A stretch of 58,727 nucleotides of DNA from Alphaproteobacteria bacterium (GTDB taxonomy: Bacteria; Pseudomonadota; Alphaproteobacteria; UBA7879; VGCX01). Below are positions 6,993-43,913 of this stretch, in pieces (position 1 is the first letter of the stretch; every line of letters begins with the position of its first letter). A program made the position numbers and the translations under genes. The stretch is from positions 1 through 58,727 of the forward strand of contig VGCX01000001.1 in assembly GCA_016869935.1 (NCBI GenBank). The letters are read 5' to 3'. The notes under the pieces are model-generated. The model was not told the origin of the DNA, searched no databases, and worked only from the letters and a program-made list of their open reading frames with translations.

Positions 6993-7529
6993 ATGCGTTT
7001 TGAAAATTTTAGTCCTATAATATATGCAGATATCACTGGCAATCCAACAATTGGTTATGGGCATCTTGTAACGGCGGGAGAGAATTACTATGGTGCTTTA
7101 AACCAAGATGATGCTTTAGGTCTTCTTGTGTCTGATATAGAAAGCAAAGCTAATATTATGCCCTATCTTGGAGTTAGTTTAGAAGAAAATCAACTAGACG
7201 CATTAACATCTCTTTGTTTTAATATAGGGATTGGAAATTTCATGCGTTCTACTCTTTTGCAAAAAATCAACATGGAAGATACGTATGGATCCTATGAATA
7301 TTTTGGTCATTGGAGAAATGCTAACGGGGTAGTTAGCACCGGTCTTATTAAAAGGCGATTTGCAGAGTTATTTGTTTTTGCAAACCAAGAACTGGACCCA
7401 TCAGATGATACAGCGCCAAGTATGCAATGGGGATTAGATCCTATGCCTATCACGGACGAAAACTGGCGAAGGATTGGTTATGATTTACGCAATGAAGCTG
7501 TTGCAATTTATCAAGATTATGTTAGTTAA
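6993..7529 (+). CDS. GH24 (phage T4/lambda-type) lysozyme catalytic domain
   Basis: RFENF...YADITGNPTIGYGH matches the GH24 E-x8-D-x5-T catalytic signature. The ATG-initiated ORF has no RBS and no export signal of its own. Confidence 0.8.
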   Translation: MRFENFSPIIYADITGNPTIGYGHLVTAGENYYGALNQDDALGLLVSDIESKANIMPYLGVSLEENQLDALTSLCFNIGIGNFMRSTLLQKINMEDTYGSYEYFGHWRNANGVVSTGLIKRRFAELFVFANQELDPSDDTAPSMQWGLDPMPITDENWRRIGYDLRNEAVAIYQDYVS

Positions 7530-7573
7530 TAATCCATAGTCAGTTCAGACCTTAGTAGTTTATAGGGATTTTC

Positions 7574-8485
7574 ATGAAGTTTGTTTGTGTCTTTTTTTCT
7601 TGCGCCATTCTTCTTAAAGAATGCTGTTTTGCAGATACCAAAACAATTCTGGAGCAAGAGGTTGTTCTTGAAGAAATTCTGGACAAATTATTAAAAAAGA
7701 AAAAAGATTCTCATATAGACTATCTAAGGTCTTTTAAAGAAATCCTTTTTGCCTATAGAAAAAAACATGTAGAAGGTGTTTTTGCGCAAGATAATCAGTG
7801 CCCTGGCACTATTGTTCGTGAAAGCTCATACTACACACAGTCTTGTATCATCAAAAAACAAACTAAAGACATAAGATTTCTGTCAGGTCATTCAATCCCT
7901 ACAGATGTCCGTATTTGGCTAGAGGATGCAGAACAAGATTTGTGGAAAGAGTTGGAACCCATTCTTTCTCATGAAGACTATCTTTCAAAAAGCATGACAT
8001 ATATCAAAAAAAAGCTGATGTTTGAAAAAGTCTTAGAGAGACGGCAAGAATTTTATTGGGATTCTTGTTATGATCTTGCAAGAAGAAATAAAATAAAATT
8101 TTCCAAAGAAGAAATATCTTTTTTAAAGGCGCTTGATGAACAAATTTCTGAAGCATTTTTAAAGGTCTTAAGCCTTTATAAAACAGCGCCTATTTCAATG
8201 CGATTGATATTGGAAGACCATAGTGTATGGCTATCTTACCGCTTATATCTTCTGTTGATTGGAGAGCATCTGGGTGTCGATGGCGACCTTCTAAAACTCC
8301 GCCTTATTTGTCTGGGGCTGGCCCGTTTGTATTTTTATAAAAGATTTTTTGCCTACTTTGATCCCGAAAAATCTGTCGAGCAATACGCTGTACTACCACC
8401 ACGTGAATATGCTGAAATATGCGAGTATGATTATACGCGCAAGCTAAAAGGACTGCCTTTGTCAGAACCTTGCTATCCTTCCTAA
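7574..8485 (+). CDS. Hypothetical secreted protein (303 aa)
   Basis: N-terminal signal-like MKFVCVFFSCAILLKECCFA on a helical, K/E-rich protein. I recognise no family. It lies directly downstream of the lysozyme. Confidence 0.45.
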   Translation: MKFVCVFFSCAILLKECCFADTKTILEQEVVLEEILDKLLKKKKDSHIDYLRSFKEILFAYRKKHVEGVFAQDNQCPGTIVRESSYYTQSCIIKKQTKDIRFLSGHSIPTDVRIWLEDAEQDLWKELEPILSHEDYLSKSMTYIKKKLMFEKVLERRQEFYWDSCYDLARRNKIKFSKEEISFLKALDEQISEAFLKVLSLYKTAPISMRLILEDHSVWLSYRLYLLLIGEHLGVDGDLLKLRLICLGLARLYFYKRFFAYFDPEKSVEQYAVLPPREYAEICEYDYTRKLKGLPLSEPCYPS

Positions 8486-10497: not shown

Positions 10498-11535
10498 ATG
10501 GATTCATTTCGACAAGTAAAATATATTATTCTACTTTTGTGTGTCCCGTTTTTAATGTGGGGGCTCTGGGGAAACTATTATGGGGAAGGCAACTTTAAGC
10601 TTGCCCATGATTTGTATGAAGAAAGCTATCAGTTAAACATCCTACAGATTTTTTCTAATAATTTAGAGCTTGATACAAAAAAAGAAATTCATATCACAAC
10701 AGAAGATGTTAACAAAGACCTATGGCCCACATCAGAAATAAAAGAGGCTGTCCAAAAAGGTCTTTTTTCTTTCGGATGCTTGTACCTCGAGCACTTAAGA
10801 AAAGAAGATCCCATCTTTGAAATGGATTCTATTCCTTTTTTAGCAACAGACTATGAACAGGCCCAGATTTTATGGAAAGTAACGCGTTCTTATATTGAAT
10901 CTAAATTTAATCAATCAGGCCTTGTTTATCTTTTTTCTATTCCCTGTTCACCACAAGATCTCTATTTAAACAAAAGCATGGATAATTTAAGTGCCCTCCG
11001 GGTTTTAAAAATTCGAACCTATGGGCAAATTTTACCTGAATACGTGAGTCTTTTAGGAATGAATCCTGTTTTATTTAAAGGTCCAAAGGAATTTAAAAAA
11101 TTACAAGAGGGTCAAGTAGACGGATTTTTTGGAAGTCGCAACTCTGCCTTTCTTGCACAAACTTCCATTTTTGCCTCTTATTACTATCGGCTAAAATATT
11201 CTTTACCCAAGTACGTTGTTGTTATGAACATAAAAGATTTTGAAGCTCTTTCTCCTGATGCAAAAAACAACCTTTTTTTGCAGGCCAAAAAAATGGAAAT
11301 GCTTGCGTGGCGCATGAGCCAAACAGATGATCAGCGTCGTCAGCATCTTTTCAAGCAACTTCCTATCCCAGAATGGTTTAAAAAACGCTCTCTAGAGGTT
11401 ACGTCCACTATGCTTAAAGAGTGGAAATCCCGTGCGGGGGATCTTGGTCAAAAACTTTTAGATACCTACAAAAATGCTCTGATCGAATCAGGCAAGCCAC
11501 TTCCTCCAGCGCTAGGCGGACAGATGGATTCCTAG
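10498..11535 (+). CDS. DctP-like (TRAP-type) periplasmic solute-binding protein, orphan
   Basis: N-terminal TM/signal sequence. DSIPFLATDYEQAQ, LKIRTYG and KKLQEGQVDGFFG resemble the DctP-family pattern. No dctQM genes are nearby. Confidence 0.5.
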   Translation: MDSFRQVKYIILLLCVPFLMWGLWGNYYGEGNFKLAHDLYEESYQLNILQIFSNNLELDTKKEIHITTEDVNKDLWPTSEIKEAVQKGLFSFGCLYLEHLRKEDPIFEMDSIPFLATDYEQAQILWKVTRSYIESKFNQSGLVYLFSIPCSPQDLYLNKSMDNLSALRVLKIRTYGQILPEYVSLLGMNPVLFKGPKEFKKLQEGQVDGFFGSRNSAFLAQTSIFASYYYRLKYSLPKYVVVMNIKDFEALSPDAKNNLFLQAKKMEMLAWRMSQTDDQRRQHLFKQLPIPEWFKKRSLEVTSTMLKEWKSRAGDLGQKLLDTYKNALIESGKPLPPALGGQMDS

Positions 11536-12065
11536 CTCAGGACAATAATCCCGTCCTTTTTCTGTTTGTCATTTTTGAGCTTAGGGGCATCTTTCCATTT
11601 GTGTGACGTAATTCTAACGGTATAGTCTAAAAGCTCAACTTTTACACAATCCGCAGAAAATATATTCCATCGATTGGCTTTTTGGTTGGAATAGTCAGCA
11701 AAAACAAACCCTGCAGCAACTTCGGTTTTTTGATATTTTAAAGGAATAATAATACTGGTTCCCGGAATCATTTCGAAGGATTTAATTTTAATTTTTTGCG
11801 GATGATCATATTTAAGCTGTTTGCGCTGTTTCATATATTGACGGGCCGTTAATATACCAACTTGTTCCGCAATCCGTTCATCTTTAACAATAACAACATC
11901 AACCTTAAGAGCCGTTTTATTGTTCATATTAGGGGTTGCAACAAGGGTCAATTCATCAATAAATTCCCAATCTTCTTCTTCAAAAAGCGTTGAACTTAGA
12001 CGACTACATCCCGTAAAAAGAGTCAAAATCATTAAAAGAGAAAAGCTATGTCGATTTAAAATCAT
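11532..12065 (-). CDS. TssJ-like (SciN/VasD-type) T6SS lipoprotein candidate
   Basis: Lipobox LFTGC with an AAGGA RBS 7 nt before ATG 12065. The pattern LTLVATPNMN..ALKVDVVIVKD...IPGTS..IPL....AAGFVFADYS...NRW resembles the TssJ family. It is the last gene of the vgrG operon. Confidence 0.5.
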   Translation of the reverse strand: MILNRHSFSLLMILTLFTGCSRLSSTLFEEEDWEFIDELTLVATPNMNNKTALKVDVVIVKDERIAEQVGILTARQYMKQRKQLKYDHPQKIKIKSFEMIPGTSIIIPLKYQKTEVAAGFVFADYSNQKANRWNIFSADCVKVELLDYTVRITSHKWKDAPKLKNDKQKKDGIIVLS

Positions 12066-12075
12066 GGTAAAATCC

Positions 12076-13002
12076 TTATTCACTCCGTACATCATCCTCA
12101 ACTAAAACTATGATAGGAGAAAGAGAAACATCTTTAGCAATCCTATCTTTATACTGATGGGATTCCCGCTCTGTTAAGGCGGCATTCAAACGCACATAAA
12201 ACCATGACTGATCCTTGTGTGTGCGATCCTTATAAACCCCCACATCATATCCTTTTGATTGAAGCTTTTCCTTAAATTCATCGGCATCAGCTTCTTGTTC
12301 AAAAGAACCCAATTGTAACGTAAAAGTATTCTTTGGATCAAGCACAGGGAGCGTTGTATTTTGCACAGCATTTTTCATGAGCGGTAAAGGATAAGATGGC
12401 TTCTGATAAGAATCTAAATGGCCGCTTTCTTTTTCATCCATTGCAGTGGGGTCACTTTCAATCGACAATAAAGATCCTTTTTCAAAAATCTTATATTTTA
12501 CAGAAGGAGGAGGGCCATAAGGAGACGTGCCCAAAGCATAAACAGCGCCGTGCGTCATACTATGATTCATGCTATCGCGTTTCTTTACAACAAATAAGGA
12601 TGATGCCTTTAAAGTAGGCTTTTCTTCTTTTTGATCAGCCTCCTTTTTTTGTTTTTCTTGCTCTTCTTTTTCCCGTTTTTCCTTTTCTTGTTTTTGTTTT
12701 TCTCGCTTTTCTACATCAATCCCAGCGAGTTTATTAAAATATTTTTGTGCTTCTGTCACTTCTGAATCTGTCATAGTAATTCCAGGAGTTGGAGTCCCTT
12801 CCTTTTGCATGCTTTCTTGAGAAAACTTTGATGTGTCTATAACCGCTTCAGGTATTTCTGAAAATAGCGCCTTAAGGGATGAAAATGTTCCTTTAACTGC
12901 TTCCCAAGGAGAGGGCTTTTTTGGATCATTTAAATAGCCTGCTATCCCAAACCCTATCGTTAAAGAAACGAGTATAACACCAATATTTTTTAAAAAATCC
13001 AT
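12076..13002 (-). CDS. Membrane-anchored coiled-coil protein with C-terminal SPOR (peptidoglycan-binding) domain
   Basis: N-terminal TM (IGVILVSLTIGFGIAGY), a KE-rich stretch (EKREKQKQEKEKREKEEQEKQKKE), and a C-terminal FTLQLGSFEQEADADEFKEKLQSKGYDVGVYKD..WFYVRL SPOR-like fold. Confidence 0.65.
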   Translation of the reverse strand: MDFLKNIGVILVSLTIGFGIAGYLNDPKKPSPWEAVKGTFSSLKALFSEIPEAVIDTSKFSQESMQKEGTPTPGITMTDSEVTEAQKYFNKLAGIDVEKREKQKQEKEKREKEEQEKQKKEADQKEEKPTLKASSLFVVKKRDSMNHSMTHGAVYALGTSPYGPPPSVKYKIFEKGSLLSIESDPTAMDEKESGHLDSYQKPSYPLPLMKNAVQNTTLPVLDPKNTFTLQLGSFEQEADADEFKEKLQSKGYDVGVYKDRTHKDQSWFYVRLNAALTERESHQYKDRIAKDVSLSPIIVLVEDDVRSE

Positions 13003-13004
13003 TT

Positions 13005-13391
13005 CTACTGTGCCTCAACAATCACTTGCCCCGGAAAAACAATTTTAATTTGTCCTGCATAGGCGCAATTCAGCATACTCGAATCAAGAACTGCTGGAAC
13101 CCCCCCAATCAAAACCTTCGCTGAAGGAGGCGCCCAAGGACCGGCAGGGGCTGGCACGCAAGGCTGGGGCGTCAAGACCCCTAGTGCCGCGGATGTAGCA
13201 GCTGCAACAGTAGGGTTGGCCAAGCTTAAACACATTCCAAACGAGGCTACGTTTGCCATCGGTGCATTTCCCATAATCGTCCCAGCAGGGGTTTTTCCCA
13301 TAATAGGGGGTGAGGGCGGAAATGTGAGAGGGGCTGGAGCCGTTCCTTTAGAACACTGCGCTGTTGCCCCTGTTACGACAAGTTTTGGCAT
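13005..13391 (-). CDS. DUF4280 (PAAR-like) VgrG-capping protein
   Basis: 128 aa. VVTGATAQCSKGTAP...FGMC...QPCVP...GPW...LIGGVP.L..SS.L.CAYAGQIKI..PGQ matches the DUF4280 pattern. Confidence 0.8.
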   Translation of the reverse strand: MPKLVVTGATAQCSKGTAPAPLTFPPSPPIMGKTPAGTIMGNAPMANVASFGMCLSLANPTVAAATSAALGVLTPQPCVPAPAGPWAPPSAKVLIGGVPAVLDSSMLNCAYAGQIKIVFPGQVIVEAQ

Positions 13392-13403
13392 TGATATCCT
13401 TTT

Positions 13404-14111
13404 TTATTTTTGCGAGTCCATTGATTTTTTTTCAATCAGATTTCCTCGATCATCATATACTTCTTCATAAATAACCATACCATCTTTATACTGTTTTAGC
13501 ATCATAAGAGACTGATTCATATGATAAGTTTTTGAGTCACCCACCGGAATATCTTTTGAAAACAAAACCTCTTCATACAAGGTACCGTTGGGATAAAAAT
13601 TTTGACTAAGACCCTCTTTATATCCAGATTGATACTGTTCTTTTTTAAGAAGATGTCCTTGATCATCGTAAATGCAAAACTCTTGATCCATCATTCCGTG
13701 TGTATAGGTTCCTGTCGTATTAATTTGTCCATTGGTATGATAGGTCACAAAGGGACCCTCTAAAATATCTTTTACAAAGGTAGTCTCAACAACTTTCTGA
13801 CCTTTGATGTAAAAAATACTGAGCCCATTTTTTTGTCCTTGATCAAAAAAAATTTGGCAAACAAGATCCTTTTGATCATCAAATTCTTCCATCATCCCAT
13901 GGGGAATTCCGTCTTTGAGGGGAATTTTTTGGATCACGTTTCCTTGGTCATTTTCAACAGTATGGAAAGTGATATCCGTAAGATTCTCTGGGAGAGAAGG
14001 CTCCAAAGTACTTGTCTCTAGGCTTTGCACAGATTCCTTTTTCGGTGGGCCTTCCTTTTGCTGCTGGACAAGTCGAAGTTGTTCTAAAATTTCAGGGGTA
14101 ATTTCTAACAT
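13404..14111 (-). CDS. MORN-variant repeat protein (YwqK-like)
   Basis: 235 aa with repeated G.....Y..NG....E..Y..G units (GPFVTYHTNGQI, GLSQNFYPNGTLYEE, DSKTYHMNQSL...YKDG). It lies 3 nt downstream of vgrG. Confidence 0.7.
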   Translation of the reverse strand: MLEITPEILEQLRLVQQQKEGPPKKESVQSLETSTLEPSLPENLTDITFHTVENDQGNVIQKIPLKDGIPHGMMEEFDDQKDLVCQIFFDQGQKNGLSIFYIKGQKVVETTFVKDILEGPFVTYHTNGQINTTGTYTHGMMDQEFCIYDDQGHLLKKEQYQSGYKEGLSQNFYPNGTLYEEVLFSKDIPVGDSKTYHMNQSLMMLKQYKDGMVIYEEVYDDRGNLIEKKSMDSQK

Positions 14112-14114
14112 GTG

Positions 14115-16157
14115 TTAGCCTAATTTAATCATTCCCCCCGTAAGGGCAATCATTCCACCAGCAATAGTAACACCCCCCGCACCGGTTAATTTGGCTGTTG
14201 CTCCTTTAATATCTACAAGAGTATCTGCCTCTATTTTAATAGTTGGCCCCTTAAAATCTGTGAGAGTCTTTCCAAGGGTTTTAATGTTATCTGCATTAAT
14301 AATAAGATCTTTTGTAATATTAAGGGTTAGGCTGCCATCAACGGTCACAGTCCCATCTTTTCCTACTTTAATCGTCGCATTTTTTCCAATCGTTAAATTC
14401 AAATCATCGCTGATCTTTGTGGTGCGACTTCCAGCAGCCAGTGTTAGAAAATCATCACCTTTACTAAGCGTTGTATCTCTTTTGCCTTCAACAATTGTTA
14501 AAATATCGTGACCCTTGCTTTTTGTTCCTTTAATAGTTGTCGTACGTTGACCATCTAAAATCATGGTCGTCATATCTGTTTGAGCTTGCATAAAGAAGTT
14601 TTCAGACCCTTTTGTGTCATCAAAATGAAGCTCGTTGAACCCACCACCGCCTTTGGAAGAATTTGTTTTAAAGCCACTTTTGATCGCCATATCGGGCCCA
14701 TAAGGGGGCATATTCGTTGCATTGTAAACGCACCCAATTACCAGAGGCTGATCAGGGTCCCCGTTCAAAAAAGTAATGATGACTTCCTGCCCAACACGGG
14801 GAATAAAAAAAGCACCCCAGTTTTTATCAGCCCAACTTTGGGCAACACGCACCCAACAAGAAACCGCATCGTCTTTTGTGTCGCTCAAATCCCAATGAAA
14901 CTTCACCATAATCCGGCCGTATTTGTCAGTCCAAATTTCTTCGCCAGCTTTACCGGAAACTGTTGCCGTTTGAGTCCCATAAATTTTTGGGATATGCGCT
15001 GTTTTGGGGGGGTGATAGGGCGTTTCTTTTTTATAAAATGTTATTTGATTATTATACTCTAAATCAAAAACATTCTCGGGAGAAAAAGATTGATTTGTCT
15101 CCAAGGCCTCTAAAACTGCCCGATGCTCAATGGAAAAAATTGTAAAATCTTTGCTTTTCAGGTCATCTCGAACGAGATTTTTTGCTACCTCATCTGACAG
15201 TGTGAATGTAGATCCTACCTCTACCATATGAATATCTGACTGCGCTTGAAGAGAGTTTTTGGGAAACTCCAAAGCAGCCATACGAATGTCAGAAAGGGCA
15301 GTGCCTCGATCCTGTAGAGTGTAGCGTCCGGGATAATGGTAAACCTCTCTTCCGCTCCCCTTCCCTGCAGAATCAACCTTGAGGCTCGTCTGTGTTTTCT
15401 CAAAATCATAGTCCGTATAAGTATGTTTGGAGGGAACTATTTGTTGCAAGAAACGAAGATTCCAGAGAGAAAAATCTCCCCCTAAAGGTCTTTCAGGATA
15501 CGGGGACATTTTTAGGGTAGCAAAATCAGCATCTTCAAGCGCTTGATAGGGCTGGCTTTCATCTACAAGGGTCAGTGTATGACTCCCCTCTTTATGCTTA
15601 AAATAGTATGCAATTCCTTCCTCTTCCATTAATCGAGAAACAAAATTGAAATTACTTTCATTATACTGAACACAAAAGTCTTTTTGTACCGTCCCTGCTG
15701 TACTGGTATTATCTTGTAAGGTGATGCTATGGTCTGAAAGAACGCTTTTGATGATTTCAAGAGGTGTTTTCTTTTGAAAAATCCGACACTGCTCTGTAAG
15801 AGTCATCCCCCACATTTTAGGACGAAGTTTGGCCTGAAAGTACGTTGATTGGGCGGTTCGATCTGCCTCTGCCCCTGCATGTAAGAAGGTTCCACCCTGA
15901 GTGACTTCTGTAATAACGCCGTGAAAATAGCGTTTCTTTTTATTAATACAAACCGTGACGGTTGCTTCTGTTTCCACAAGGGTTGAAAGATCTAGATTTG
16001 GTCCCTTTTTGTTAACCTGATAAGGAACATAAAGAGATAGGTCAAAGTCAAAAAGACCTGAGATGCGCTCTACGCCCTTAAACTCTCGAAGAAAGATCTG
16101 ATCTTTTCCAAGGGTCGTCGTAATTGATAGATAAACATTATCTTGAGTTGTGAGCAT
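14115..16157 (-). CDS. vgrG: Type VI secretion spike protein VgrG (TssI)
   Basis: 680 aa with a gp27-like N-terminal half and a gp5 OB-fold signature (RVAQSWADKNWGAFFIPRVGQEVIITFLNGDPDQPLVIGCVYN). The C-terminus is a beta-helix of G/T/K-rich repeats. Confidence 0.92.
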   Translation of the reverse strand: MLTTQDNVYLSITTTLGKDQIFLREFKGVERISGLFDFDLSLYVPYQVNKKGPNLDLSTLVETEATVTVCINKKKRYFHGVITEVTQGGTFLHAGAEADRTAQSTYFQAKLRPKMWGMTLTEQCRIFQKKTPLEIIKSVLSDHSITLQDNTSTAGTVQKDFCVQYNESNFNFVSRLMEEEGIAYYFKHKEGSHTLTLVDESQPYQALEDADFATLKMSPYPERPLGGDFSLWNLRFLQQIVPSKHTYTDYDFEKTQTSLKVDSAGKGSGREVYHYPGRYTLQDRGTALSDIRMAALEFPKNSLQAQSDIHMVEVGSTFTLSDEVAKNLVRDDLKSKDFTIFSIEHRAVLEALETNQSFSPENVFDLEYNNQITFYKKETPYHPPKTAHIPKIYGTQTATVSGKAGEEIWTDKYGRIMVKFHWDLSDTKDDAVSCWVRVAQSWADKNWGAFFIPRVGQEVIITFLNGDPDQPLVIGCVYNATNMPPYGPDMAIKSGFKTNSSKGGGGFNELHFDDTKGSENFFMQAQTDMTTMILDGQRTTTIKGTKSKGHDILTIVEGKRDTTLSKGDDFLTLAAGSRTTKISDDLNLTIGKNATIKVGKDGTVTVDGSLTLNITKDLIINADNIKTLGKTLTDFKGPTIKIEADTLVDIKGATAKLTGAGGVTIAGGMIALTGGMIKLG

Positions 16158-16225: not shown

Positions 16226-16618
16226 TTACAAGGCCCATTGGCGTGCATAGATTCCACAAAATCGAGGGGCAAAGAATAAGGCGATTAACAGATAAATCCA
16301 GGGACCAGAAAAACAGAAAAAGCTCTCAAACGCGTCTGGCTCATAAATTATTTGGATGATCAACGCCCCAAAAGCCCATACCATTCCAAGAAACCACAAG
16401 TCTTTGCGCGCGTAACGAATCCGCATATTTTTTAAAACATTTCCCAAAATGAATCCAAAAGACAAGAAAGAAAATCCACTTAAAATCCAAAGAGACCAAA
16501 AATTTAGAACGCTTTTAAGGACCAAGACCCCGTAAAGAATGCCTAAAAAAGGAATCAGTGCTTTACTAAAAACCGTCGAGAGAAGAAAAGAGATTGTTGA
16601 ATGTTTTATTGATGACAT
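16226..16618 (-). CDS. Hypothetical membrane protein (130 aa, ~4 TM)
   Basis: Hydrophobic ORF only. I recognise no family. Confidence 0.4.
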   Translation of the reverse strand: MSSIKHSTISFLLSTVFSKALIPFLGILYGVLVLKSVLNFWSLWILSGFSFLSFGFILGNVLKNMRIRYARKDLWFLGMVWAFGALIIQIIYEPDAFESFFCFSGPWIYLLIALFFAPRFCGIYARQWAL

Positions 16619-21890: not shown

Positions 21891-22457
21891 ATGAGTAATT
21901 CATCCAAAAAATTTCTAATCGGCGCTATCGCAGCAGCAGCTATTGGTGGCTACATTGTACATAAAAAATCACATAAAGAGGAAGAGCATCAAGCTCCTGT
22001 TGCTGAAACACAAACTTCAGAAACTTGCCCAGCGCATGTAATGATGACAGCACATGAAGAAATGAAGCTTGAAGCTGAGAAAAAAGCAGCAGAACATCAT
22101 GGCGTCGAGCATGCAGCACCTGCTCATCACGAAACTCCTGCTCATCATGTAGCACCTGCTCATCATGCAGCACCTGCTCATCACGAAACTCCTGCTCATC
22201 ATGCAGCCCCTGTTCATCATGCAGCCCCTGTTCATCATGCAGCTCCTGTTCATCATGCAACGCATGTTATGAAAACAGCGCATGAAGAAATGAAAAAAGA
22301 GGCAAAAGCGCCAGCACATGCTAAAGCGCCAGCACACCCAGTTGCGCATCATAAAGCGCCAGCACATGCTAAAGCACCTGTGCATCACAAAGCGCCAGCA
22401 CATGCTAAAGCACCAGCTAAGCAAGCTGAAACAGCTGGAACAGCTGAAAAGAAATAG
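21891..22457 (+). CDS. Membrane-anchored histidine-rich repeat protein
   Basis: N-terminal TM (FLIGAIAAAAIGGYIV), then eight xxP(A/V)HH hexapeptide repeats and KAPAHA-type repeats. The motif V M x TAHEEMK x EA occurs twice. Confidence 0.7.
   Translation: MSNSSKKFLIGAIAAAAIGGYIVHKKSHKEEEHQAPVAETQTSETCPAHVMMTAHEEMKLEAEKKAAEHHGVEHAAPAHHETPAHHVAPAHHAAPAHHETPAHHAAPVHHAAPVHHAAPVHHATHVMKTAHEEMKKEAKAPAHAKAPAHPVAHHKAPAHAKAPVHHKAPAHAKAPAKQAETAGTAEKK
22113..22256 (+). repeat. 8 x 18-bp in-frame tandem repeat (encodes xxP(A/V)HH units)
   Basis: Counted directly: the units start at 22113, 22131, 22149, 22167, 22185, 22203, 22221 and 22239. Confidence 0.9.
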
Positions 22458-22486
22458 TTTTTTTCGTTTAGTATCTCTCGTTTCAA

Positions 22487-22522
22487 ATCTCTCGCCCTTC
22501 ATCAGGCGGGAGATTTTATTTT
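22487..22522 (+). terminator. Rho-independent terminator after the His-rich gene
   Basis: The 10-bp stem atctctcgcc / ggcgggagat (one G-U pair) has an 8-nt loop and is followed by tttatttt. Confidence 0.55.
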
Positions 22523-22571
22523 GACAAGATTCCCCCTTCTCCTTCACAATAAAAATAAGAGGATAACCAGT

Positions 22572-23270
22572 ATGAAAAAATCAATTCTTTTCACCTTTTT
22601 ATGGGTCATTTTTTGTATAAGCCCCCTCAACAATTCAGAAGTTGTTTGGGCTAAAGGCAAGTCAGGCGGCAAATCTAATCCTGCAGATCAAGGTAGCGGC
22701 AATGATGGATCTGGAGGTGGAGGTGATGTGGCGGATGGTTCTCAAGACGGTTCTCAAGACCCTGGTGATAACGGCGGAGATAGCGGCGGCGTAGACGGCG
22801 CTGATGGTAATAGCGGAAACGATGGGAATGATAATGGGGGCGATACTTCTTCTGACGGGTCCTCTGATGCCTCTGGAGGGAATTCTGCCACACCCCCCAA
22901 ATGGGATGATAGTGCAATGTCATCGAGCAAACTGGCCCCACCCCCACCGCAAGAAGCTGTTGAATGCTTTGGCATTATGGGCGCAGGACAAAATGACAAC
23001 GTTTTTGTTGATGTGGATGGGCGTCAATATGGATACGGCGAAGCGCCAGCATGTCATCCTTTAGCCTCTATTAAACTTCCCAAAGACAGTCTCTATATGT
23101 GTGAAAATATTACAGTGGGTCGAACAGAAAAGGGGGAGCTTATTCGAGGATCGTTAAAACCCGATCCCGATCGCCGGTCCCCAATAGTTTGTTATCCTTA
23201 TGATTTTATTAAGCAAAAAATCACCTATATGAATCCCGATTATGCAGTCCCCCTCCGTGGTTTCAATTAG
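22572..23270 (+). CDS. Secreted DUF2282-like (bufferin BufA-like) protein with a long G/D/S-rich spacer
   Basis: AAGAGGA RBS before ATG 22572 and signal peptide MKKSILFTFLWVIFCISPLNNSEVVWA. ECFGIMGAGQNDN resembles the DUF2282 core C(Y/F)G(I/V)xxAGxNDC. There are four Cys in the C-terminal domain. The 3' end overlaps the DUF692 gene. Confidence 0.55.
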   Translation: MKKSILFTFLWVIFCISPLNNSEVVWAKGKSGGKSNPADQGSGNDGSGGGGDVADGSQDGSQDPGDNGGDSGGVDGADGNSGNDGNDNGGDTSSDGSSDASGGNSATPPKWDDSAMSSSKLAPPPPQEAVECFGIMGAGQNDNVFVDVDGRQYGYGEAPACHPLASIKLPKDSLYMCENITVGRTEKGELIRGSLKPDPDRRSPIVCYPYDFIKQKITYMNPDYAVPLRGFN

Positions 23271-24078
23271 TGCCGGTATTGGGTTGCGTCCCAATCATCT
23301 GGAAGAATTTATAAAAACACAGCCGCCCATTTCTTGGATCGAAGTCATTCTTGAAAACCATCGCTCAGGGGTCCGCCGCCAAGCACTGGAGAAGCTTCGA
23401 TCCACCTATCCCTTAAGTGTTCATAGCATTGGATTATCCCTTGGAAAGGCAGGTCCCCTTTCCAAAGATCACCTACGTCTTCTAAAAGAATTTTGTGATA
23501 TTTTTGATCCTTTTCTTGTTTCTGATCATGTAGCATGGACAGGAACGGATGATATTTTTTTGAACGACCTTCTGCCCCTTCCCTATACAGATGAATCTTT
23601 AAAAATTATTGTAGACCATATCCAAGAGGTCCAGGATTTCTTAGGACGTCAGATTTTAATTGAAAATTCTTCTAGTTATTTGACCTTTAACACATCAACA
23701 ATCGACGAAGCGGATTTTATGATTGCACTGGCACAACAAAGTGGATGTCTGATTTTGCTGGATGTTAATAATGTTTATGTCAGTAGCCATAATCATGGAT
23801 GGGATGCCATGCGCTATATCAGCAAAATCCCCGGATCTTTAGTTGGCGAAATTCATTTAGCCGGCCACCAAAAAGTCCAAGTGCCCAATCATCAAACGAT
23901 GCTTATCGATCATCATGGGGACTTTGTTGCAGAAGATGTGTGGAGTCTTTACGAAAAAACCCTGACCCTTTTAGGGCCCAAACCGACCCTCATTGAATGG
24001 GATACGAACATCCCCTCCCTTGATACAATTTTAAAGGAATCTTCTAAAGCTCAGGCGTATCTGAAGCGACTTCAATGA
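23242..24078 (+). CDS. DUF692-family multinuclear non-heme iron oxidase (MNIO; MbnB/BufB-like)
   Basis: GIGLRPNH, WIEVILEN, VHSIGLSLG, VSDHVAW, NDLLPLPYT, LIENSSSY, LLDVNNVYVSSHNHG and EIHLAGH follow the DUF692 consensus along the whole length. Confidence 0.82.
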   Translation: MQSPSVVSISAGIGLRPNHLEEFIKTQPPISWIEVILENHRSGVRRQALEKLRSTYPLSVHSIGLSLGKAGPLSKDHLRLLKEFCDIFDPFLVSDHVAWTGTDDIFLNDLLPLPYTDESLKIIVDHIQEVQDFLGRQILIENSSSYLTFNTSTIDEADFMIALAQQSGCLILLDVNNVYVSSHNHGWDAMRYISKIPGSLVGEIHLAGHQKVQVPNHQTMLIDHHGDFVAEDVWSLYEKTLTLLGPKPTLIEWDTNIPSLDTILKESSKAQAYLKRLQ

Positions 24079-34666: not shown

Positions 34667-35947
34667 TTATAAAGGATGCAAGTCGAAATACTTTAAATCT
34701 GCCAGAGCCTCTCTGACTTCATTTGCAATACTTTCATGGATATACGAGCGATATTCCAAAACCTTTGATAATCTTTCTTGTGCTACTTTTAGATTGGGCC
34801 TCAATATACCTAACCCTTGTAAATCCATTTTACCTAAAAAATAAAGAGCAAGAACCCAGTCCTCTTCAACAATATTTTCTATAGAAAATTTTAATATTTC
34901 TTCAAAATGAAGGCGTGCTTTCTCATAGTTCATTCTTTCATCAGAAAGCTCTATATTACCAAGAATAAGCAAAAAAGAAGCCCTGAAATGATCTGGAATA
35001 TCTTCACATTGAAGACCCTCTAATGCGTACCGCTCAGCCGCTTTAAAGTTTCTATTATTAACCCCCTCTCCTTTAAATTCCATCTGCGCTAGATACAGAA
35101 GAACGATAGGTCTACTATGGTCCTCAACTTTTTTATACAAACCAAGCAAAAGTCTTCTTGCTCCTTTAAAGTCAGGATTTTTATCTTTAAGATTTGTTCG
35201 TTTAATTTGCACTAATCTTAGATGAACATTTATCTTTTCACCAAAAGATAGATGTGAGTTATCCAAATTTCTTTTGTAAACTGATTCCAAATCAACGCTA
35301 TTTGCTAGTTCAATGATTGGTTTTTGCTTTAGCTCAATCTCCATTAAGTAATACAAAGCTTCAAGTTTTAACTCATCATTGTCCCAGGTATACTCAGAAC
35401 TTTCTTTAAATATTTTTTTTGCCTCAGTCATATCAGATGATTCATTTTCGTAAAACAATATAGTGCCCATTAGGTGTTTTGCATAAATAAGATCTTTAGG
35501 ACGCTGAGGTTTGGAATCAATAAATGCCCGCAAATCTTCTCTAAGTTTTTGTCTTTCTCGCTGAGGGCTTATATACCCTCTGATTTCCAATGAAAAATTC
35601 TTTAAGGCACAATATTCTCTCTGTTCTTTTGAAAGATTTTTTGACTCTGACAGAATTGAAAATTCGTCATATACTTCTTGTACAGACCTTGTTGAAACTT
35701 CATCATAAGACCAATAAATAATAAGGCTATAGTATTGTGATAAATGCTTTTCTTGAGAACGTGTTTTTTTGTCTTGAATAATTTCTTGAAATAGCTCATA
35801 TGCTTTTAGGACTTCTTCTTTTCCTCCAGCTTCTTCGTGAAGTAGTTGCACTGCCTCTTTAAATTTAAGATTATCTTTTTTTTCCCGAATGATATACCAA
35901 GCGGTCCAAAATAAAATATGCAATAAAACTTTAGCACTAAAATCCAT
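34667..35947 (-). CDS. Hypothetical helical-repeat (TPR-like) protein with N-terminal TM
   Basis: 426 aa with recurrent about 35-40-aa helical units (A..Y/F...A pattern). The family is not recognised with confidence. Confidence 0.45.
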   Translation of the reverse strand: MDFSAKVLLHILFWTAWYIIREKKDNLKFKEAVQLLHEEAGGKEEVLKAYELFQEIIQDKKTRSQEKHLSQYYSLIIYWSYDEVSTRSVQEVYDEFSILSESKNLSKEQREYCALKNFSLEIRGYISPQRERQKLREDLRAFIDSKPQRPKDLIYAKHLMGTILFYENESSDMTEAKKIFKESSEYTWDNDELKLEALYYLMEIELKQKPIIELANSVDLESVYKRNLDNSHLSFGEKINVHLRLVQIKRTNLKDKNPDFKGARRLLLGLYKKVEDHSRPIVLLYLAQMEFKGEGVNNRNFKAAERYALEGLQCEDIPDHFRASFLLILGNIELSDERMNYEKARLHFEEILKFSIENIVEEDWVLALYFLGKMDLQGLGILRPNLKVAQERLSKVLEYRSYIHESIANEVREALADLKYFDLHPL

Positions 35948-36004
35948 AAAAAAACCCTATTACATTCATATAAGATGACTTTAGACTAATTTCTAGTAAA
36001 AACC

Positions 36005-36841
36005 CTAAATCATTTCTTTGGGATTAAATTTAATCTCGAAGGTTTTCCACTCAGAGTAGCGATTCTTGGGAAGCCTGAGAGGCGTGCAGGCGGGGGAAAA
36101 GAGAGCACGTTTAGCGCTTTCGGCAGCTGTTCTAAAATAAGGATCATGATGCATGCGACTTTCATCATAAATTTTAACATCCCGAACGACAGCGTCAGGC
36201 CCCATAGAAACTTGAACTGTCACAATCAGCTCATCTGCATGTAGCGCTCCCGCTGGAACATTCCAGCAGCGTTGTAATTGTTGTCGCAGGGCATCCAGCT
36301 CTGAAAGAGAAAGTTTATCTGCAATATTTTCCGATTCAAATGCTTTATCGGTGGCCCGGGAATCATCGACAACATCAACGCGTTTTACTTCTTCGACAGC
36401 TTGCAGGACTGACATAAAGTCATCAGACTTTTCTACTTTCTTCCCTTTTTTATCTTTTTCATTAGGCTTTTTCTTAGGTTTTATATCCGTTTTTACCGAT
36501 TCTTTAGAGGGTTGAGGGGGTATCTTTTTCGCCTTTGGCTGCGGCATACCATCAATAACTTCTTTCTTAGATACTTGAGGTGTTTCTTTTACTTCTACCT
36601 TAGACGCTGATTGCTCTTGCGGGGCCCTTCTAGTTTCCAGTTTTGTTTTAGCAATCGGCTCTTTTATTGGTTGAACTTTTTTCGGGGGCGATGTGGTTAA
36701 ATCTGAAATAGAAACGATTTCAATGGGAATAATAGGAGGCGATTTAAGAGGACGTGTTCTTAAAAAAGGAATATTCACAAAGAGTAGTATCAAAACCACT
36801 ATGTGCAGAAAAGCTGATGAAAGAAGAGCGTTTCGTTCCAT
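36005..36841 (-). CDS. tolA: TolA-like cell envelope integrity protein (TonB_C-like C-terminus)
   Basis: N-terminal TM, a K/P/E-rich linker and a C-terminal LQRCWNVP... domain. It lies directly downstream of tolQ-tolR. Confidence 0.7.
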   Translation of the reverse strand: MERNALLSSAFLHIVVLILLFVNIPFLRTRPLKSPPIIPIEIVSISDLTTSPPKKVQPIKEPIAKTKLETRRAPQEQSASKVEVKETPQVSKKEVIDGMPQPKAKKIPPQPSKESVKTDIKPKKKPNEKDKKGKKVEKSDDFMSVLQAVEEVKRVDVVDDSRATDKAFESENIADKLSLSELDALRQQLQRCWNVPAGALHADELIVTVQVSMGPDAVVRDVKIYDESRMHHDPYFRTAAESAKRALFSPACTPLRLPKNRYSEWKTFEIKFNPKEMI

Positions 36842-36864
36842 TTTTCTCGTTCTATTCTTCCTTG

Positions 36865-37305
36865 TTACCGTTTCTTTGACGGTATTTCAGCAACAAGAGC
36901 AACCTTCGAATACCCAGCATCAGTAATTTGACCCATTACCTGCATGATAATGCCATAATTTAGCTGACGATCCCCTCGAACATAAATCCGAGTATTAGTA
37001 TTTTGCTTTGTAATTTGACCAAGTCGTGCAGATAATCGATTTAAGTCTACAGGAGTTTCTTGGATATAAACCCTTTGATCGGCATTAACCGTTACAACAA
37101 CAGGATCCATTTTATCATTCAACGTGGAGGCAGAACTTTCAGGAAGATCCACAGGAATCCCAACTGTTAGCAAAGGCGCTGTTACCATAAAAACAATTAA
37201 GAGGACCAGCATCACATCCACAAAAGGCGTGACGTTAATCTCACTCATAGGCCTAAAGCCACGGCGTCGACCTCCTCCTTTATTGGAAGAAAGCTGTATA
37301 CCCAT
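36865..37305 (-). CDS. tolR: TolR (ExbD/TolR family)
   Basis: 146 aa. INVTPFVDVMLVLLIVFM is the hallmark of the family. Confidence 0.88.
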   Translation of the reverse strand: MGIQLSSNKGGGRRRGFRPMSEINVTPFVDVMLVLLIVFMVTAPLLTVGIPVDLPESSASTLNDKMDPVVVTVNADQRVYIQETPVDLNRLSARLGQITKQNTNTRIYVRGDRQLNYGIIMQVMGQITDAGYSKVALVAEIPSKKR

Positions 37306-37307
37306 GA

Positions 37308-38039
37308 TTATCCTCCAAATAGTTTGCGGGAAACCAAAGTATGCAATTCATGAGAAAAAGTTTCCATGGATGTTGCATACCTATTTAATTCAGCAGAAAT
37401 TTTGTTATAGGCCATAACGGCTGGAATTGCGGCAACAAGCCCTAAGGCTGTTGCAAATAGAGCCTCTGCAATCCCTGGAGCCACAACCGCAAGGCTTGTA
37501 TTTTTGGACGCTGCTATTGCCTGAAAGCTGTGCATAATTCCCCAAACAGTTCCAAGAAGACCCACAAAAGGAGCTGAGGAGCCAACAGTTGCAAGAAATC
37601 CAGTGTGCTTTTCAAGATCTTCCATCTCAAGAGCCATACGACTTGAAAGAACCCGATCAATTCGATCTAGGAAGCTTTGTTTGGCAGCCATATCATTTTT
37701 CTCCGGGTGACGGGCATGCTCTCCCCATTCTTGCATAACAGCAACAAACATGCGGGCCAAAGGATCATGGGCCTTGTAGCGCACTTGTTGATAAAGGTCA
37801 TCTAACGAATGTCCTCCCCAAAACACCGACTCAAATTGTTTGCTCAGTTTTTGAAGTTTATTGATTTGTGTTATTTTGGAAAAAATAATGCTCCAGCACC
37901 AGAAGGAAGCGCCGAGCAGCACAAGAATAATAAGCTGAACAAAAATATCTGCATGAAGGAAAAGCCCCCATAAAGATAAATCTTTGGACACCATTTCAAC
38001 GGATTGCGCCAAAACTTGACCGGAACTTGTATCAACCAT
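37308..38039 (-). CDS. tolQ: TolQ (MotA/TolQ/ExbB proton channel)
   Basis: 243 aa with 3 TM segments and LATVGSSAPFVGLLGTVWGI. Confidence 0.9.
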   Translation of the reverse strand: MVDTSSGQVLAQSVEMVSKDLSLWGLFLHADIFVQLIILVLLGASFWCWSIIFSKITQINKLQKLSKQFESVFWGGHSLDDLYQQVRYKAHDPLARMFVAVMQEWGEHARHPEKNDMAAKQSFLDRIDRVLSSRMALEMEDLEKHTGFLATVGSSAPFVGLLGTVWGIMHSFQAIAASKNTSLAVVAPGIAEALFATALGLVAAIPAVMAYNKISAELNRYATSMETFSHELHTLVSRKLFGG

Positions 38040-38041
38040 AT

Positions 38042-38443
38042 CTAATTACCTCTTTCTTTAAGTTTTTCTAAAAACTCTGCAGGGAGTCTCATGAGTTTAC
38101 CACTTTGAGCAATAAAGGCCACATCCACCAACAAAACCACCACCTCTTTTCCGTCCCTTTTAATAATTTGTTTAAAAGAAACCTGAGCATTTTGAATTTT
38201 TGTTACGGTTGTTTCCACCACCAAAAGATCATCCAATTTTGCAGATGCCTTATAATTAATTTGTACGCGAGTCACCACAAAGAGGCAATGGGTGCGCTCA
38301 AATAATTCTTGCTGGTTAATGCCGAAGTCCCTTAAAAACTCTGTCCTTGCATGTTCCGCAAAGATCATATAGTGACTGTGATAAACGACACCACCAGTAT
38401 CGGTATGATCGTAATAAACCCGAAGGGAAAAATCATGTTTCAT
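38042..38443 (-). CDS. ybgC: Tol-Pal-associated acyl-CoA thioesterase YbgC (4HBT hotdog)
   Basis: 133 aa with the N-terminal signature VYYDHTDTGGVVYHSHY. Confidence 0.85.
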   Translation of the reverse strand: MKHDFSLRVYYDHTDTGGVVYHSHYMIFAEHARTEFLRDFGINQQELFERTHCLFVVTRVQINYKASAKLDDLLVVETTVTKIQNAQVSFKQIIKRDGKEVVVLLVDVAFIAQSGKLMRLPAEFLEKLKERGN

Positions 38444-38447
38444 CGGT
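38426..38447. repeat. 22-bp direct repeat ggaaaaatcatgtttcatcggt (copy A, contains the ybgC start)
   Basis: Identical to 39312-39333. The two copies flank the Bro-N gene. Confidence 0.9.
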
Positions 38448-39285
38448 GCTCTACACTCTTTTTTTCTTCTTGCCTATGCAGATAGTTTTCATGGGTTACA
38501 ACTTTTTTACCTGATTCACGTTCAAGCTGCTGTCGTGCATTCCCCGCAATGCTCCCCCCTATTTGAGACGCTTCATAATTTTCCTTGAACCCCTTAGCAT
38601 CCTTATTTCTTGCAATTTCAGTTGTCGAAGCCTCCCCAAGCATTGAAAAGATCAATTCAAGATCTGTCATGTGATCCCGTAAGTTTTCACGCTTTAGATT
38701 TTTATATTTCTTATGTTGACTTGGCGTTATCCCAAAAGCTGCCTTGGATATTTCCGCCGTTAATATAGAATATTCTTTGTTTTCTAAGATCCCTCTTTTT
38801 TGCCATTCATCCGTTAGTTCTTCCCGTATCGCAATCCCGCGCATACGTTTTTCAATCCAAGCGTCTGGGTATCCCTTTGCTTTGTAGGTTTCTCTCATTC
38901 TCTTTGACGCAAGTTCAGGGTCTTCTATCTCTTGTATACGTTCATAACCAATCTTTGCTAACCAACGTTTAAACGGCTCTGCTTTTGGAGAGGTAATAGA
39001 TTGTATAATACGAAATATTCCTTCTGTATTGGCACAGTTTATACGTTGCTTCCCGCCTTTTGTTTCGATCAAAAGGGGGGTGACAATTTGTCCCCACCCT
39101 TTAGAAAGCTCTTCATCTCGGCTTCGTACCTTTTTTATATAATCTGTAGGATTGGAAGTATTTGTTAGAACTTCAACCACATCATTAACAACAAACCACC
39201 ATTCTCCATTATAAATAGTTCGCCTTATGTTGATTCCTCTAAAAACAGCAATACGTTTGATATCTTCAATTTGATTTTTAGTCAT
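38440..39285 (-). CDS. Bro-N domain protein, DinD/antirepressor-like
   Basis: Bro-N motif (FRGINIRRTIYNGEWWFVVNDVVEVL). The C-terminal half resembles E. coli DinD (KNLKRENLRDHMTDLELIFSML). An AAGGAG RBS is present. Confidence 0.8.
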   Translation of the reverse strand: MTKNQIEDIKRIAVFRGINIRRTIYNGEWWFVVNDVVEVLTNTSNPTDYIKKVRSRDEELSKGWGQIVTPLLIETKGGKQRINCANTEGIFRIIQSITSPKAEPFKRWLAKIGYERIQEIEDPELASKRMRETYKAKGYPDAWIEKRMRGIAIREELTDEWQKRGILENKEYSILTAEISKAAFGITPSQHKKYKNLKRENLRDHMTDLELIFSMLGEASTTEIARNKDAKGFKENYEASQIGGSIAGNARQQLERESGKKVVTHENYLHRQEEKKSVEHR

Positions 39286-39311
39286 GTTTTGCTCCTTATG
39301 TAAGGGATATA

Positions 39312-39333
39312 GGAAAAATCATGTTTCATCGGT
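39312..39333. repeat. 22-bp direct repeat (copy B, contains the ruvB stop)
   Basis: Identical to 38426-38447. Confidence 0.9.
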
Positions 39334-40362
39334 CTCAAAAAAATCTGTTTGTCTTGGTTTGGGGGCTTTAACGCCCAAATACGAAAATGCTTTGGTCGTA
39401 AGTAAGCGCCCCCGAGGGGTGCGCTGCACAAAACCCTGTTGAATTAGGTAGGGTTCAATAACTTCTTCCAGGACATCCTTTTGTTCCGACAAAACGGCAG
39501 CCATGGTTTCAACCCCGACAGGCCCCCCTTCGTAATGTTCCGCAATCGTTTTCAAATATCGCCGATCCATCGCATCAAATCCTTGATCGTCCACTTCTAA
39601 TTGCCACAACGCTTCGTCTGCAATCTGACGATCAACAATGCCCTGATTTTTAACGGTTGCAATATCTCGCACCCGCCTTAAAAGGCGCATAGCGATGCGG
39701 GGCGTTCCACGGGATCGTTTACTAATCTCAAAGGCCCCCTCTTCGGTCATAGAAAGGGCTAACAAAGACGCCCCTCGTTGAATGACATGCTGTAATTCTT
39801 CTGGTGTGTAGAAAGCAAGGGGTGTTGGAATCCCAAACCGCTCCCGAAGGGGCCGTGTGATCAAACCAGAACGCGTCGTTGCCCCAATCAGGGTAAAGGG
39901 AGGCAAATCAATTTGGATGGAACGAGCGGAGGGCCCTTCTCCAATCATGAGGTCTAATTTAAAGTCCTCCATTGCAGGATAAAGAATTTCTTCTACCGCT
40001 GGGTTGAGCCTGTGAATTTCATCAATAAACAAAACATCTTTGGGCTGCAGGTTTGTCAAAAGGGCCGCAAGATCACCAGAACGGGCAATGACAGGACCAG
40101 AAGTTGCCCGAAATCCGACCCCCATTTCTTTAGCAATAATCTGGGCTAGTGTTGTTTTTCCAAGCCCTGGAGGTCCATAAAGAAGCACATGATCTAAAGC
40201 TTCTTGGCGTTGGCGGGCTGCTTTAATAAAAGTAAACAGATTATGCTTTGCCTTTTCCTGGCCAATAAATTCCTTAAGGCTTTGGGGTCGAAGCGCATAT
40301 TCCTGTTTTTCGTTTTGTTCTTCTGGCTGCGCGTTAAGAGAAACGAGACGATCATCCTTCAT
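39319..40362 (-). CDS. ruvB: Holliday junction branch migration ATPase RuvB
   Basis: 347 aa with Walker [10 protein letters not shown], Walker [10 protein letters not shown] and a RuvB C-terminal winged helix. Confidence 0.95.
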
Positions 40363-43071: not shown

Positions 43072-43126
43072 TCCCGTCAAATTATCTTCCCTTAATTTTT
43101 TTATTTTTTTATTCAAAGGTTTTTTC

Positions 43127-43837: not shown

Positions 43838-43913
<76 letters not shown>

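Follow-up and report, generated by a model that had tools for sequence, protein, structure and literature searches.

Positions 1 to 58,727 of contig VGCX01000001.1, from the metagenome-assembled genome (MAG) GCA_016869935.1 of an Alphaproteobacteria bacterium, carry a block of five minus-strand genes related to a type VI secretion system (T6SS). The whole of this stretch is referred to as the 58.7-kb window. In the direction of transcription, the block comprises vgrG (tssI; 14115-16157; 680 amino acids, aa), a gene for a MORN_2/YwqK-family repeat protein (13404-14111; 235 aa), a gene for a PAAR-like cap that consists of the DUF4280 domain only (13005-13391; 128 aa), a gene for a bitopic inner-membrane protein with a transmembrane (TM) helix and a SPOR domain (TM-SPOR protein; 12076-13002; 308 aa), and a gene for a putative, divergent TssJ-type lipoprotein (11532-12065; 177 aa from its ATG). 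The first three assignments were made from open reading frames (ORFs) and profile searches, that of the TM-SPOR protein from its ORF, a SPOR profile and an orthologue alignment, and that of the lipoprotein from its fold, lipobox and gene linkage. For the lipoprotein gene, the ORF listing extends to a TTG (189 aa) and the NCBI and JGI annotations both give 177 aa. All five ORFs are intact and are separated by gaps of 3, 12, 2, and 10 nucleotides (nt), so that the tight packing described in a first-pass annotation, made from the sequence alone, is confirmed by the ORF coordinates. The GC content of the block (approximately 0.40-0.42) equals that of the background. Look-up of the window proteins led to the MAG with locus tags FJX18_000xx, in which VgrG is MBM3609923.1.

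Profile searches supported all four of the earlier assignments to VgrG, MORN, DUF4280, and SPOR. VgrG matched Phage_GPD (E value 5.5e-71, 239.7 bits), Phage_base_V (1.9e-15, 57.4 bits), and Gp5_trimer_C (2.9e-20, 73.0 bits), as well as TIGR03361 (1.4e-153, 512 bits against a cut-off of 186). Its architecture combines a gp27-like hub with a gp5 OB domain and a beta-helix, and its C-terminus is plain beta-helix sequence with no effector domain. The identical VgrG amino-acid sequence was found on contigs from three samples, namely a Lake Tanganyika JGI contig carrying the whole block and two Logan assemblies, the shorter of which carries vgrG alone; the other four block proteins are each on record from 6-11 contigs. 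The DUF4280 protein matched its profile over positions 1-109 of 109 (5.1e-27, 95.1 bits against a cut-off of 26.3). It has exactly four cysteines (C13, C54, C78, and C109), which are kept in all five orthologues. Four conserved metal-binding cysteines are a hallmark of IglG/DUF4280 proteins and are essential in Francisella IglG (PMC5014421).

The lipoprotein has a hydrophobic N-terminus (signal peptide) and a lipobox cysteine, C20, that is invariant across its 11-member family (11 sequence clusters). Scanning a genome collection with the profile of this family returned only two loci. In direct comparisons, the protein scored 15.9 bits (0.011) against T6SS-SciN (PF12790; cut-off 27) and 18.8 bits (0.001) against TIGR03352 (TssJ; cut-off 31.6), and the best-scoring orthologue, from locus L012 described below, reached 24.5 bits, still sub-threshold. 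We then considered its AlphaFold2 (AF2) model, which has a mean predicted local distance difference test (pLDDT) score of 71 and values of approximately 85-93 over core residues 41-110. When this model was searched against the PDB with Foldseek, the ten best matches were all TssJ structures, with E values from 3.3e-6 to 3.7e-3 and target template-modelling (TM) scores of 0.59-0.73. The top match was 3zhn (3.3e-6, TM score 0.73), followed by 4a1r, 6ixh, 4y7o_C, and 3rx9, and the first match after the top ten had an E value of 3e-2. Owing to the sub-threshold sequence scores, the assignment to TssJ is made on fold, lipoprotein signal, and gene linkage and not on membership of a sequence model; on these grounds a divergent TssJ is a structure-supported prediction. 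The TssJ-like pattern proposed in the first-pass annotation is thus borne out by the fold and not by the sequence profiles.

In the 308-aa TM-SPOR protein, an N-terminal TM helix (approximately residues 7-24) leads into a periplasmic segment that is conserved and a linker rich in K/E. The conserved motif GAVYALGTSPYGPPPSVK comes next, and a SPOR domain (residues 224-299, 2e-10) is found at the C-terminus. Alignment of the orthologues revealed a shared TM helix, the motifs NDPxNPSP and E(I/V)TEAQKYFN, and a strongly conserved GAVYxxGTxPYGPPPxVK. Four of the five orthologues have the SPOR domain. The family appears to be small, as the N-terminal 216 aa had 10 representative relatives among 1.84 billion proteins. 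No match to the OmpA/Pal/MotB domain (PF00691) was found with Pfam, and the binding domain is SPOR (PF05036).

The 235-aa protein matched MORN_2 with 38.4 bits (7.2e-10; cut-off 29.6). It is made up of an N-terminal helix motif, a variable linker of low confidence, and an array of MORN beta-hairpins; in the AF2 model, pLDDT exceeds 90 for approximately residues 120-225 and lies below 50 for residues 1-47, which are disordered. The helix motif, ITPE(I/L)LEQ(I/L)R, stands out in an otherwise fast-evolving protein: ITPEILEQ.R does not vary among the close homologues that were aligned and is almost unchanged in others. Foldseek returned eukaryotic MORN1 and junctophilin-type single-layer beta-sheets as top matches for the model and no enzyme or catalytic fold. 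Homologues fell into three clusters at E<=1e-5.

We next asked where the rest of the secretion system is encoded. Essentially all ORFs of at least 120 aa in the window were scanned with Pfam, NCBIfam, and precomputed Pfam calls, and no further T6SS core gene was recognisable among them, in agreement with the first-pass annotation; nor was a toxin or enzyme domain detected with Pfam and NCBIfam in any of the five block proteins, again as noted before. The remainder of the window is occupied by housekeeping genes (addAB, tsaE/tsaD, ruvAB, ybgC-tolQRA, sodB, ubiH, miaB, etc.) and a few ORFs of 426, 631, 303, and 249 aa that received no assignment. A hidden T6SS core was suspected in two operons on the minus strand, one at 34.6-41 kb and the other at 44-55 kb, but they turned out to be ruvAB/tolQRA and addAB/tsaE and similar genes.

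On other contigs of the same MAG, traced by exact-sequence cluster look-up and joined to the window by the shared locus-tag prefix FJX18_, we found TssB (MBM3610511), TssC (MBM3610512), two Hcp-like proteins (FJX18_03175 and FJX18_03180), TssE (MBM3610515), TssF (MBM3610516), TssG (MBM3610517 and MBM3610271, split by a contig end), and ClpV (MBM3610270). The sheath, baseplate, and ClpV genes are full length except for the assembly break inside tssG. The earlier suggestion that the block supplies parts to a T6SS encoded elsewhere is therefore supported: the look-up recovered an eight-gene set for sheath, tube, baseplate, and ClpV. Regarding the tube, two tandem genes for proteins of approximately 175-215 aa follow tssC in the relatives (L009, 8299-9425; L012, 8289-9428; L014, 7263-8506). 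For the most part both had weak, sub-threshold T6SS_HCP matches (E value of approximately 1e-3), so that Hcp is probably present as two divergent paralogues and not missing.

Comparison with relatives clarified how the two parts belong together. On a 114-kb ENA contig (L007/L012), whose lipoprotein is 56% identical to that of the window, the five-gene block directly follows clpV in a contiguous 13-gene cluster, tssB-tssC-hcp-hcp-tssE-tssF-tssG-clpV-vgrG-MORN-DUF4280-TM protein-TssJ-like, with housekeeping genes on both flanks. Representative genomes of two GTDB species (L015 and L016) have a contiguous tssE/F-tssG-clpV-vgrG-MORN-DUF4280-TM/SPOR-lipoprotein arrangement; among these three distant relatives with a contiguous cluster, the upstream part was read as far as tssB only in L012. 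A close relative, represented by a 76.7-kb JGI contig (L005 and L010, overlap confirmed) with a lipoprotein 79% identical to that of the window, has the vgrG block and tssB-...-clpV on the same strand approximately 15 kb apart, with housekeeping genes between them. An 862-aa Clp ATPase encoded upstream of vgrG in L005 was considered as ClpV and is ClpB (TIGR03346, 1352 bits against 1232). The flanking genes indicate which part was displaced. In L012, an RluD-type pseudouridine synthase gene is oriented divergently to tssB; its counterpart in the window (66% identity) lies divergent to vgrG, with a 130-aa ORF in between, and ubiH-sodB follow the lipoprotein gene both in the window and in L015. 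It follows that the vgrG end stayed in place and that tssB-clpV moved. A further locus (L013), at 734928-756733 of the genome of a Holosporaceae bacterium (CP060261.1), contains an eroded T6SS cluster in which tssG is in two parts, a glycosyltransferase gene is inserted, and vgrG is frameshifted and lies in three frames, followed by a split MORN gene. No tssC was called there, and no DUF4280, TM, or TssJ homologues were detectable at that locus.

The ancestral state in this clade is one contiguous 13-gene cluster. Our analyses make it likely that the block represents the third of the lineage's single T6SS(i) cluster that encodes the spike and the envelope anchor, detached by rearrangement from tssB-tssC-hcp-hcp-tssE-tssF-tssG-clpV, and not an auxiliary effector island. 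The description of the block as an orphan tip operon in the manner of a vgrG island, for which adaptor, PAAR-toxin, and immunity genes would be expected, does not hold, as in relatives it makes up the final, 3' part of the main T6SS cluster. All five block proteins are orthologous across the relatives, with E values from 1e-30 to 0. Identities to L005, L015, L012, and L016, in this order, are 82, 61, 67, and 44% for VgrG, 81, 62, 67, and 48% for the DUF4280 protein, 79, 55, 56, and 45% for the TssJ-like lipoprotein, 48, 38, 34, and 36% for the MORN protein, and 57, 37, 34, and 32% for the TM-SPOR protein; SodB, for reference, has 89, 82, and 72% to L005, L015, and L016, with no value for L012. 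The variable cargo expected of an auxiliary vgrG island was not seen, since the same four orthologues follow vgrG in L005, L012, L015, and L016, with the MORN gene always between vgrG and the DUF4280 gene. Clear orthologues in a fixed order argue against a swappable effector/immunity cassette, and the idea that the 308-aa or the 235-aa protein is variable novel cargo does not fit, as in each of the relatives examined the two have orthologues at a fixed position.

Several observations nevertheless weigh against a rearranged but complete secretion system with a resident envelope anchor. The lipoprotein fails both curated TssJ sequence cut-offs, the profile of its family had no match among PDB sequences, and the AF2 models used here rest on shallow alignments (11 and 4 sequences). 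In L012, the 211-aa TM protein has no SPOR domain, which would make peptidoglycan binding dispensable. None of tssK, tssL, tssM, and tssA was seen within 10 kb of the clusters L009, L010, L012, L014, L015, and L016, and the MAG itself was not searched for them; a complete machine is thus an assumption. Furthermore, evolution is markedly faster in the MORN and TM-SPOR proteins than in VgrG, the DUF4280 protein, and the TssJ-like protein, at rates that would also fit effector or immunity proteins. Adaptation specific to a host or to the envelope would best be looked for in these two proteins.

This last point leads to the strongest alternative, namely a true auxiliary vgrG island with a novel effector/immunity set, in which, for example, the TM-SPOR protein acts as an effector on the cell wall, the lipoprotein confers immunity to it in the periplasm, and the YwqK/MORN protein is a further immunity protein. 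Lipoproteins of the periplasm are common among T6SS immunity proteins, which suits this explanation, as do the faster divergence of the MORN and TM-SPOR proteins than of the neighbouring genes, the tiny, lineage-restricted nature of both families, and the annotation of the YwqK family in databases as antitoxin or immunity protein, a label also used in the symbiont papers (PMC8163844; bioRxiv 10.1101/719211). It would, however, have to accommodate five proteins devoid of toxin or enzyme domains, a gene content and order fixed across five relatives over a VgrG identity range of 44-82% and joined to clpV in three of them, and a lipoprotein whose best structural matches are exclusively TssJ. The N-terminal membrane anchor of the SPOR protein likewise suits a resident envelope protein and not a spike passenger. 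As for the MORN protein, no toxin partner (a YwqJ-like deaminase or other polymorphic toxin) was found with Pfam and NCBIfam in VgrG, the DUF4280 protein, or the neighbours, and with no such toxin adjacent, the label "YwqK antitoxin" lacks partner support here. Fixed synteny and the TssJ fold led us to reject the effector/immunity interpretation of the TM-SPOR protein and the lipoprotein as the leading one, and we regard an effector island as improbable.

Less probable still is that the block is the decaying remnant of a T6SS that no longer functions in this genome, although this lineage has a broken-up cluster, the presence of tssK, tssL, tssM, and tssA in the MAG is unverified, and the named Holosporaceae genome contains a visibly eroded version. 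That same genome illustrates what decay looks like, as its vgrG is frameshifted and its tssG and MORN genes are split; the block studied here, in contrast, has five intact, tightly spaced ORFs, orthologues conserved at the protein level, a VgrG recovered unchanged from three samples together with four partners recorded repeatedly, and sheath, baseplate, and ClpV genes in the MAG that are full length bar the assembly break. An origin from a phage-tail-like particle, a prophage baseplate, or an extracellular contractile injection system deserves almost no credence. The gp27/gp5 domains are common to VgrG and phage baseplate hubs, and a Phage_lysozyme gene lies 4 kb away, but T6SS-specific VgrG models score 512 and 349 bits against 15 bits for phage P2 gpV, and no phage tail, tape-measure, or capsid genes surround the block. 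VgrG is, moreover, genetically tied to the T6SS through the core genes in the same MAG and through its contiguity with clpV in L012, L015, and L016, and in relatives the whole block is linked to tssB/C/E/F/G/clpV.

With the block regarded as a detached part of a single T6SS(i) cluster, the following working model can be proposed. VgrG, going by its family assignment, would trimerise into the spike, which the four-cysteine DUF4280 protein would cap and sharpen as IglG does in Francisella, judging by its family and its conserved cysteines. The MORN protein probably docks on the VgrG/PAAR-like tip via its conserved N-terminal helix, acting as a loading adaptor or, alternatively, as a non-enzymatic passenger. 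In the envelope, the lipoprotein would be the outer-membrane piece of the membrane complex and, as a divergent TssJ, may contact TssM. The TM-SPOR protein is probably a resident, lineage-specific accessory of the inner membrane that ties this complex to peptidoglycan, taking a TagL/TagN role with SPOR in place of OmpA/MotB; we consider such a resident envelope accessory the most economical explanation of its architecture. Sheath, tube, baseplate, and ClpV are supplied by the second locus, found in the same genome, and TssK, TssL, TssM, and TssA would be expected at a third, as in published Holosporales genomes. A bolder version of this model, which we hold to be rather doubtful, is that in a freshwater Holosporales-like clade part of the T6SS envelope anchor has been replaced or supplemented by the lineage-specific bitopic SPOR protein and the divergent TssJ, and that the MORN protein is a conserved, non-enzymatic passenger docked on the spike by its N-terminal helix and delivered into a protist host, where its MORN repeats would bind membranes or proteins. 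If the passenger role were true, the published label of "immunity protein" for MORN/YwqK would be wrong. In any case, YwqK/MORN proteins are routinely named immunity proteins, yet here one is fixed between the spike and cap genes without a toxin, and adaptor or passenger roles are worth testing.

Upstream of the block, a minus-strand ORF for a 130-aa protein with several TM segments (16226-16618) lies 68 nt from vgrG and has no family match in Pfam or NCBIfam. Its conservation is confined to the close relative L005, which also has a split cluster and in which it occupies the same position with 55% identity; the contiguous clusters, in which clpV directly adjoins vgrG, do not have it. In the relatives, small ORFs that precede tssB were compared with it as possible kin and are unrelated. 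The ORF may be the first gene of the vgrG transcription unit, and the cluster breakpoint may be where it originated or was captured. Scanning for promoters and terminators gave consensus-level matches only; of the promoter-like sites on the minus strand, the best one stops 4 nt short of the vgrG ATG and is uninformative.

On the other side of the block, two genes lie at 6993-8485 (plus strand), 3-4.5 kb beyond the tssJ-like gene, one for a GH24 Phage_lysozyme that lacks a signal peptide and one for a 303-aa product with a hydrophobic N-terminus and no assigned family. The slot beyond sodB differs among relatives, and in L015 (12440-16789) it contains the gene for a 1449-aa leucine-rich-repeat protein; this variable slot could be a site of real T6SS cargo genes. 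Elsewhere in the window, a DUF692 enzyme of the MbnB/TglH/ChrH type, associated with modification of ribosomally synthesized and post-translationally modified peptides (RiPPs), is encoded at 23242-24078 (plus strand, 1.2e-95). Upstream of it are a 249-aa ORF without assignment and a gene for a 188-aa repeat protein, and the locus as a whole (21891-24078, plus strand) may be a small peptide-modification locus. The minus-strand operon at 34667-40964 reads ruvA-ruvB-[Bro-N protein, 38440-39285]-ybgC-tolQ-tolR-tolA-like (278 aa), so that a phage-type Bro-N gene sits inside a ruvAB/tol housekeeping operon; at its end, in the place expected for tolB, is a 426-aa ORF (34667-35947) with no TolB, PD40, or other family match. 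A 226-aa ORF (43055-43735, plus strand) has a Terminase_6C nuclease domain as its sole match (1.5e-15). It stands alone between a kefB-like transporter gene and tRNA-Asn (43838-43913) and is probably the remnant of a terminase from a prophage or gene-transfer agent. Finally, the 631-aa ORF at 44060-45955 (minus strand) has no match in Pfam or NCBIfam, and its cluster at 90% identity has two members.

Among characterized proteins, the closest structural counterparts of the lipoprotein are canonical TssJ proteins such as Pseudomonas aeruginosa TssJ1 (3ZHN), Serratia Lip (4A1R), and SciN of enteroaggregative Escherichia coli (3RX9/4Y7O). They have in common with it a lipoprotein signal with a lipobox cysteine, a transthyretin-like beta-sandwich (predicted in our case), and a gene located in a T6SS cluster. 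The lipoprotein differs from them by an identity of only 10-14% in structural alignments, by scores below the Pfam and TIGRFAM cut-offs, and, in the model, by two inserted helices (residues 63-87) and a C-terminal tail of 20-30 residues of low confidence. For the TM-SPOR protein, the comparison is with TagL, TagN, TagP, and TagW, as peptidoglycan-binding accessory proteins are a known theme of T6SSs (PMC13584744). Like them, it is anchored in the inner membrane, has a periplasmic peptidoglycan-binding domain, and is encoded in a T6SS cluster beside a membrane-complex gene. Unlike them, it has SPOR (PF05036) instead of OmpA/Pal/MotB (PF00691), a single TM helix and not three, an N-terminal family of only approximately 10 representative sequences, and one orthologue without SPOR. 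In view of the different binding domain, the TM-SPOR protein would be at most a functional analogue of TagL-type proteins; if it truly anchors the complex to peptidoglycan, a SPOR-based variant would be added to the known OmpA-type anchors. The DUF4280 protein, in turn, resembles Francisella IglG (PMC5014421) in its domain, its four conserved cysteines, the position of its gene beside vgrG, and its occurrence in the T6SS of an intracellular-type bacterium. It lacks, however, the N-terminal helical extension of IglG, and the system here is a T6SS(i) with canonical TssB/C/E/F/G/ClpV matches and not the T6SS(ii) of Francisella.

The nearest relatives of the whole system are found in Holosporales. 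We infer that the MAG belongs to this order from its T6SS type, from the nearest named TssF (48% identity, Holosporaceae bacterium), and from an ATP/ADP translocase (TLC) gene on the contig of the close relative (L005/L010). An intracellular symbiont context is plausible, as indicated by the T6SS type, the vgrG-MORN pair in the named Holosporaceae genome, and that same translocase gene. Midha et al. (PMC8163844) reported that the T6SS genes of Bodocaedibacteraceae, Paracaedibacteraceae, and Caedimonadaceae are located at four or more loci with a conserved arrangement; dispersed loci, including a [ywqK-vgrG] locus, have thus already been described in Holosporales symbionts, and in Bodocaedibacter a tssJ-like lipoprotein gene (CPBP_00933) precedes tssK (PMC8163844). 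In diplonemid endosymbionts, George et al. (bioRxiv 10.1101/719211) found YwqK beside VgrG in all those studied and reported TssD and TssJ as missing, and a 2025 review (PMC11909080) repeats the view of a "non-standard T6SS".

The block is a new example of this dispersed arrangement. In common with the systems of Ca. Bodocaedibacter vickermanii, Paracaedibacteraceae, Caedimonadaceae, and Cytomitobacter/Nesciobacter (PMC8163844; bioRxiv 10.1101/719211; PMC11909080), it has a T6SS(i)-type core scattered over several loci, a YwqK/MORN_2 gene adjoining vgrG, no obvious toxin at the vgrG locus, Hcp and TssJ proteins so divergent as to be reported missing or "-like", and a streamlined genome of approximately 40% GC. 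The arrangements differ in that here the MORN gene is downstream of vgrG and is followed by the DUF4280, TM-SPOR, and TssJ-like genes, whereas in Bodocaedibacter the tssJ-like gene comes before tssK-L-M-A and tssF/G are apart from tssB/C. Three points are not spelled out in the cited papers: that the vgrG locus of this clade has a DUF4280-TM/SPOR-TssJ tail, that the ancestral 13-gene cluster is contiguous, and that TssJ has structural support and the two tandem genes have weak Hcp matches. Given the structure-supported TssJ and the two weak Hcp paralogues in this clade, at least part of the reported absence of TssJ and Hcp may reflect divergence and not loss. An apparent oddity, a vgrG operon with neither a machine nor a toxin, thus receives an ordinary explanation in a split T6SS cluster of the kind documented for Holosporales symbionts, to which the present analysis makes two modest additions, namely a divergent TssJ with structural support and an accessory protein that bears SPOR and is restricted to the lineage.

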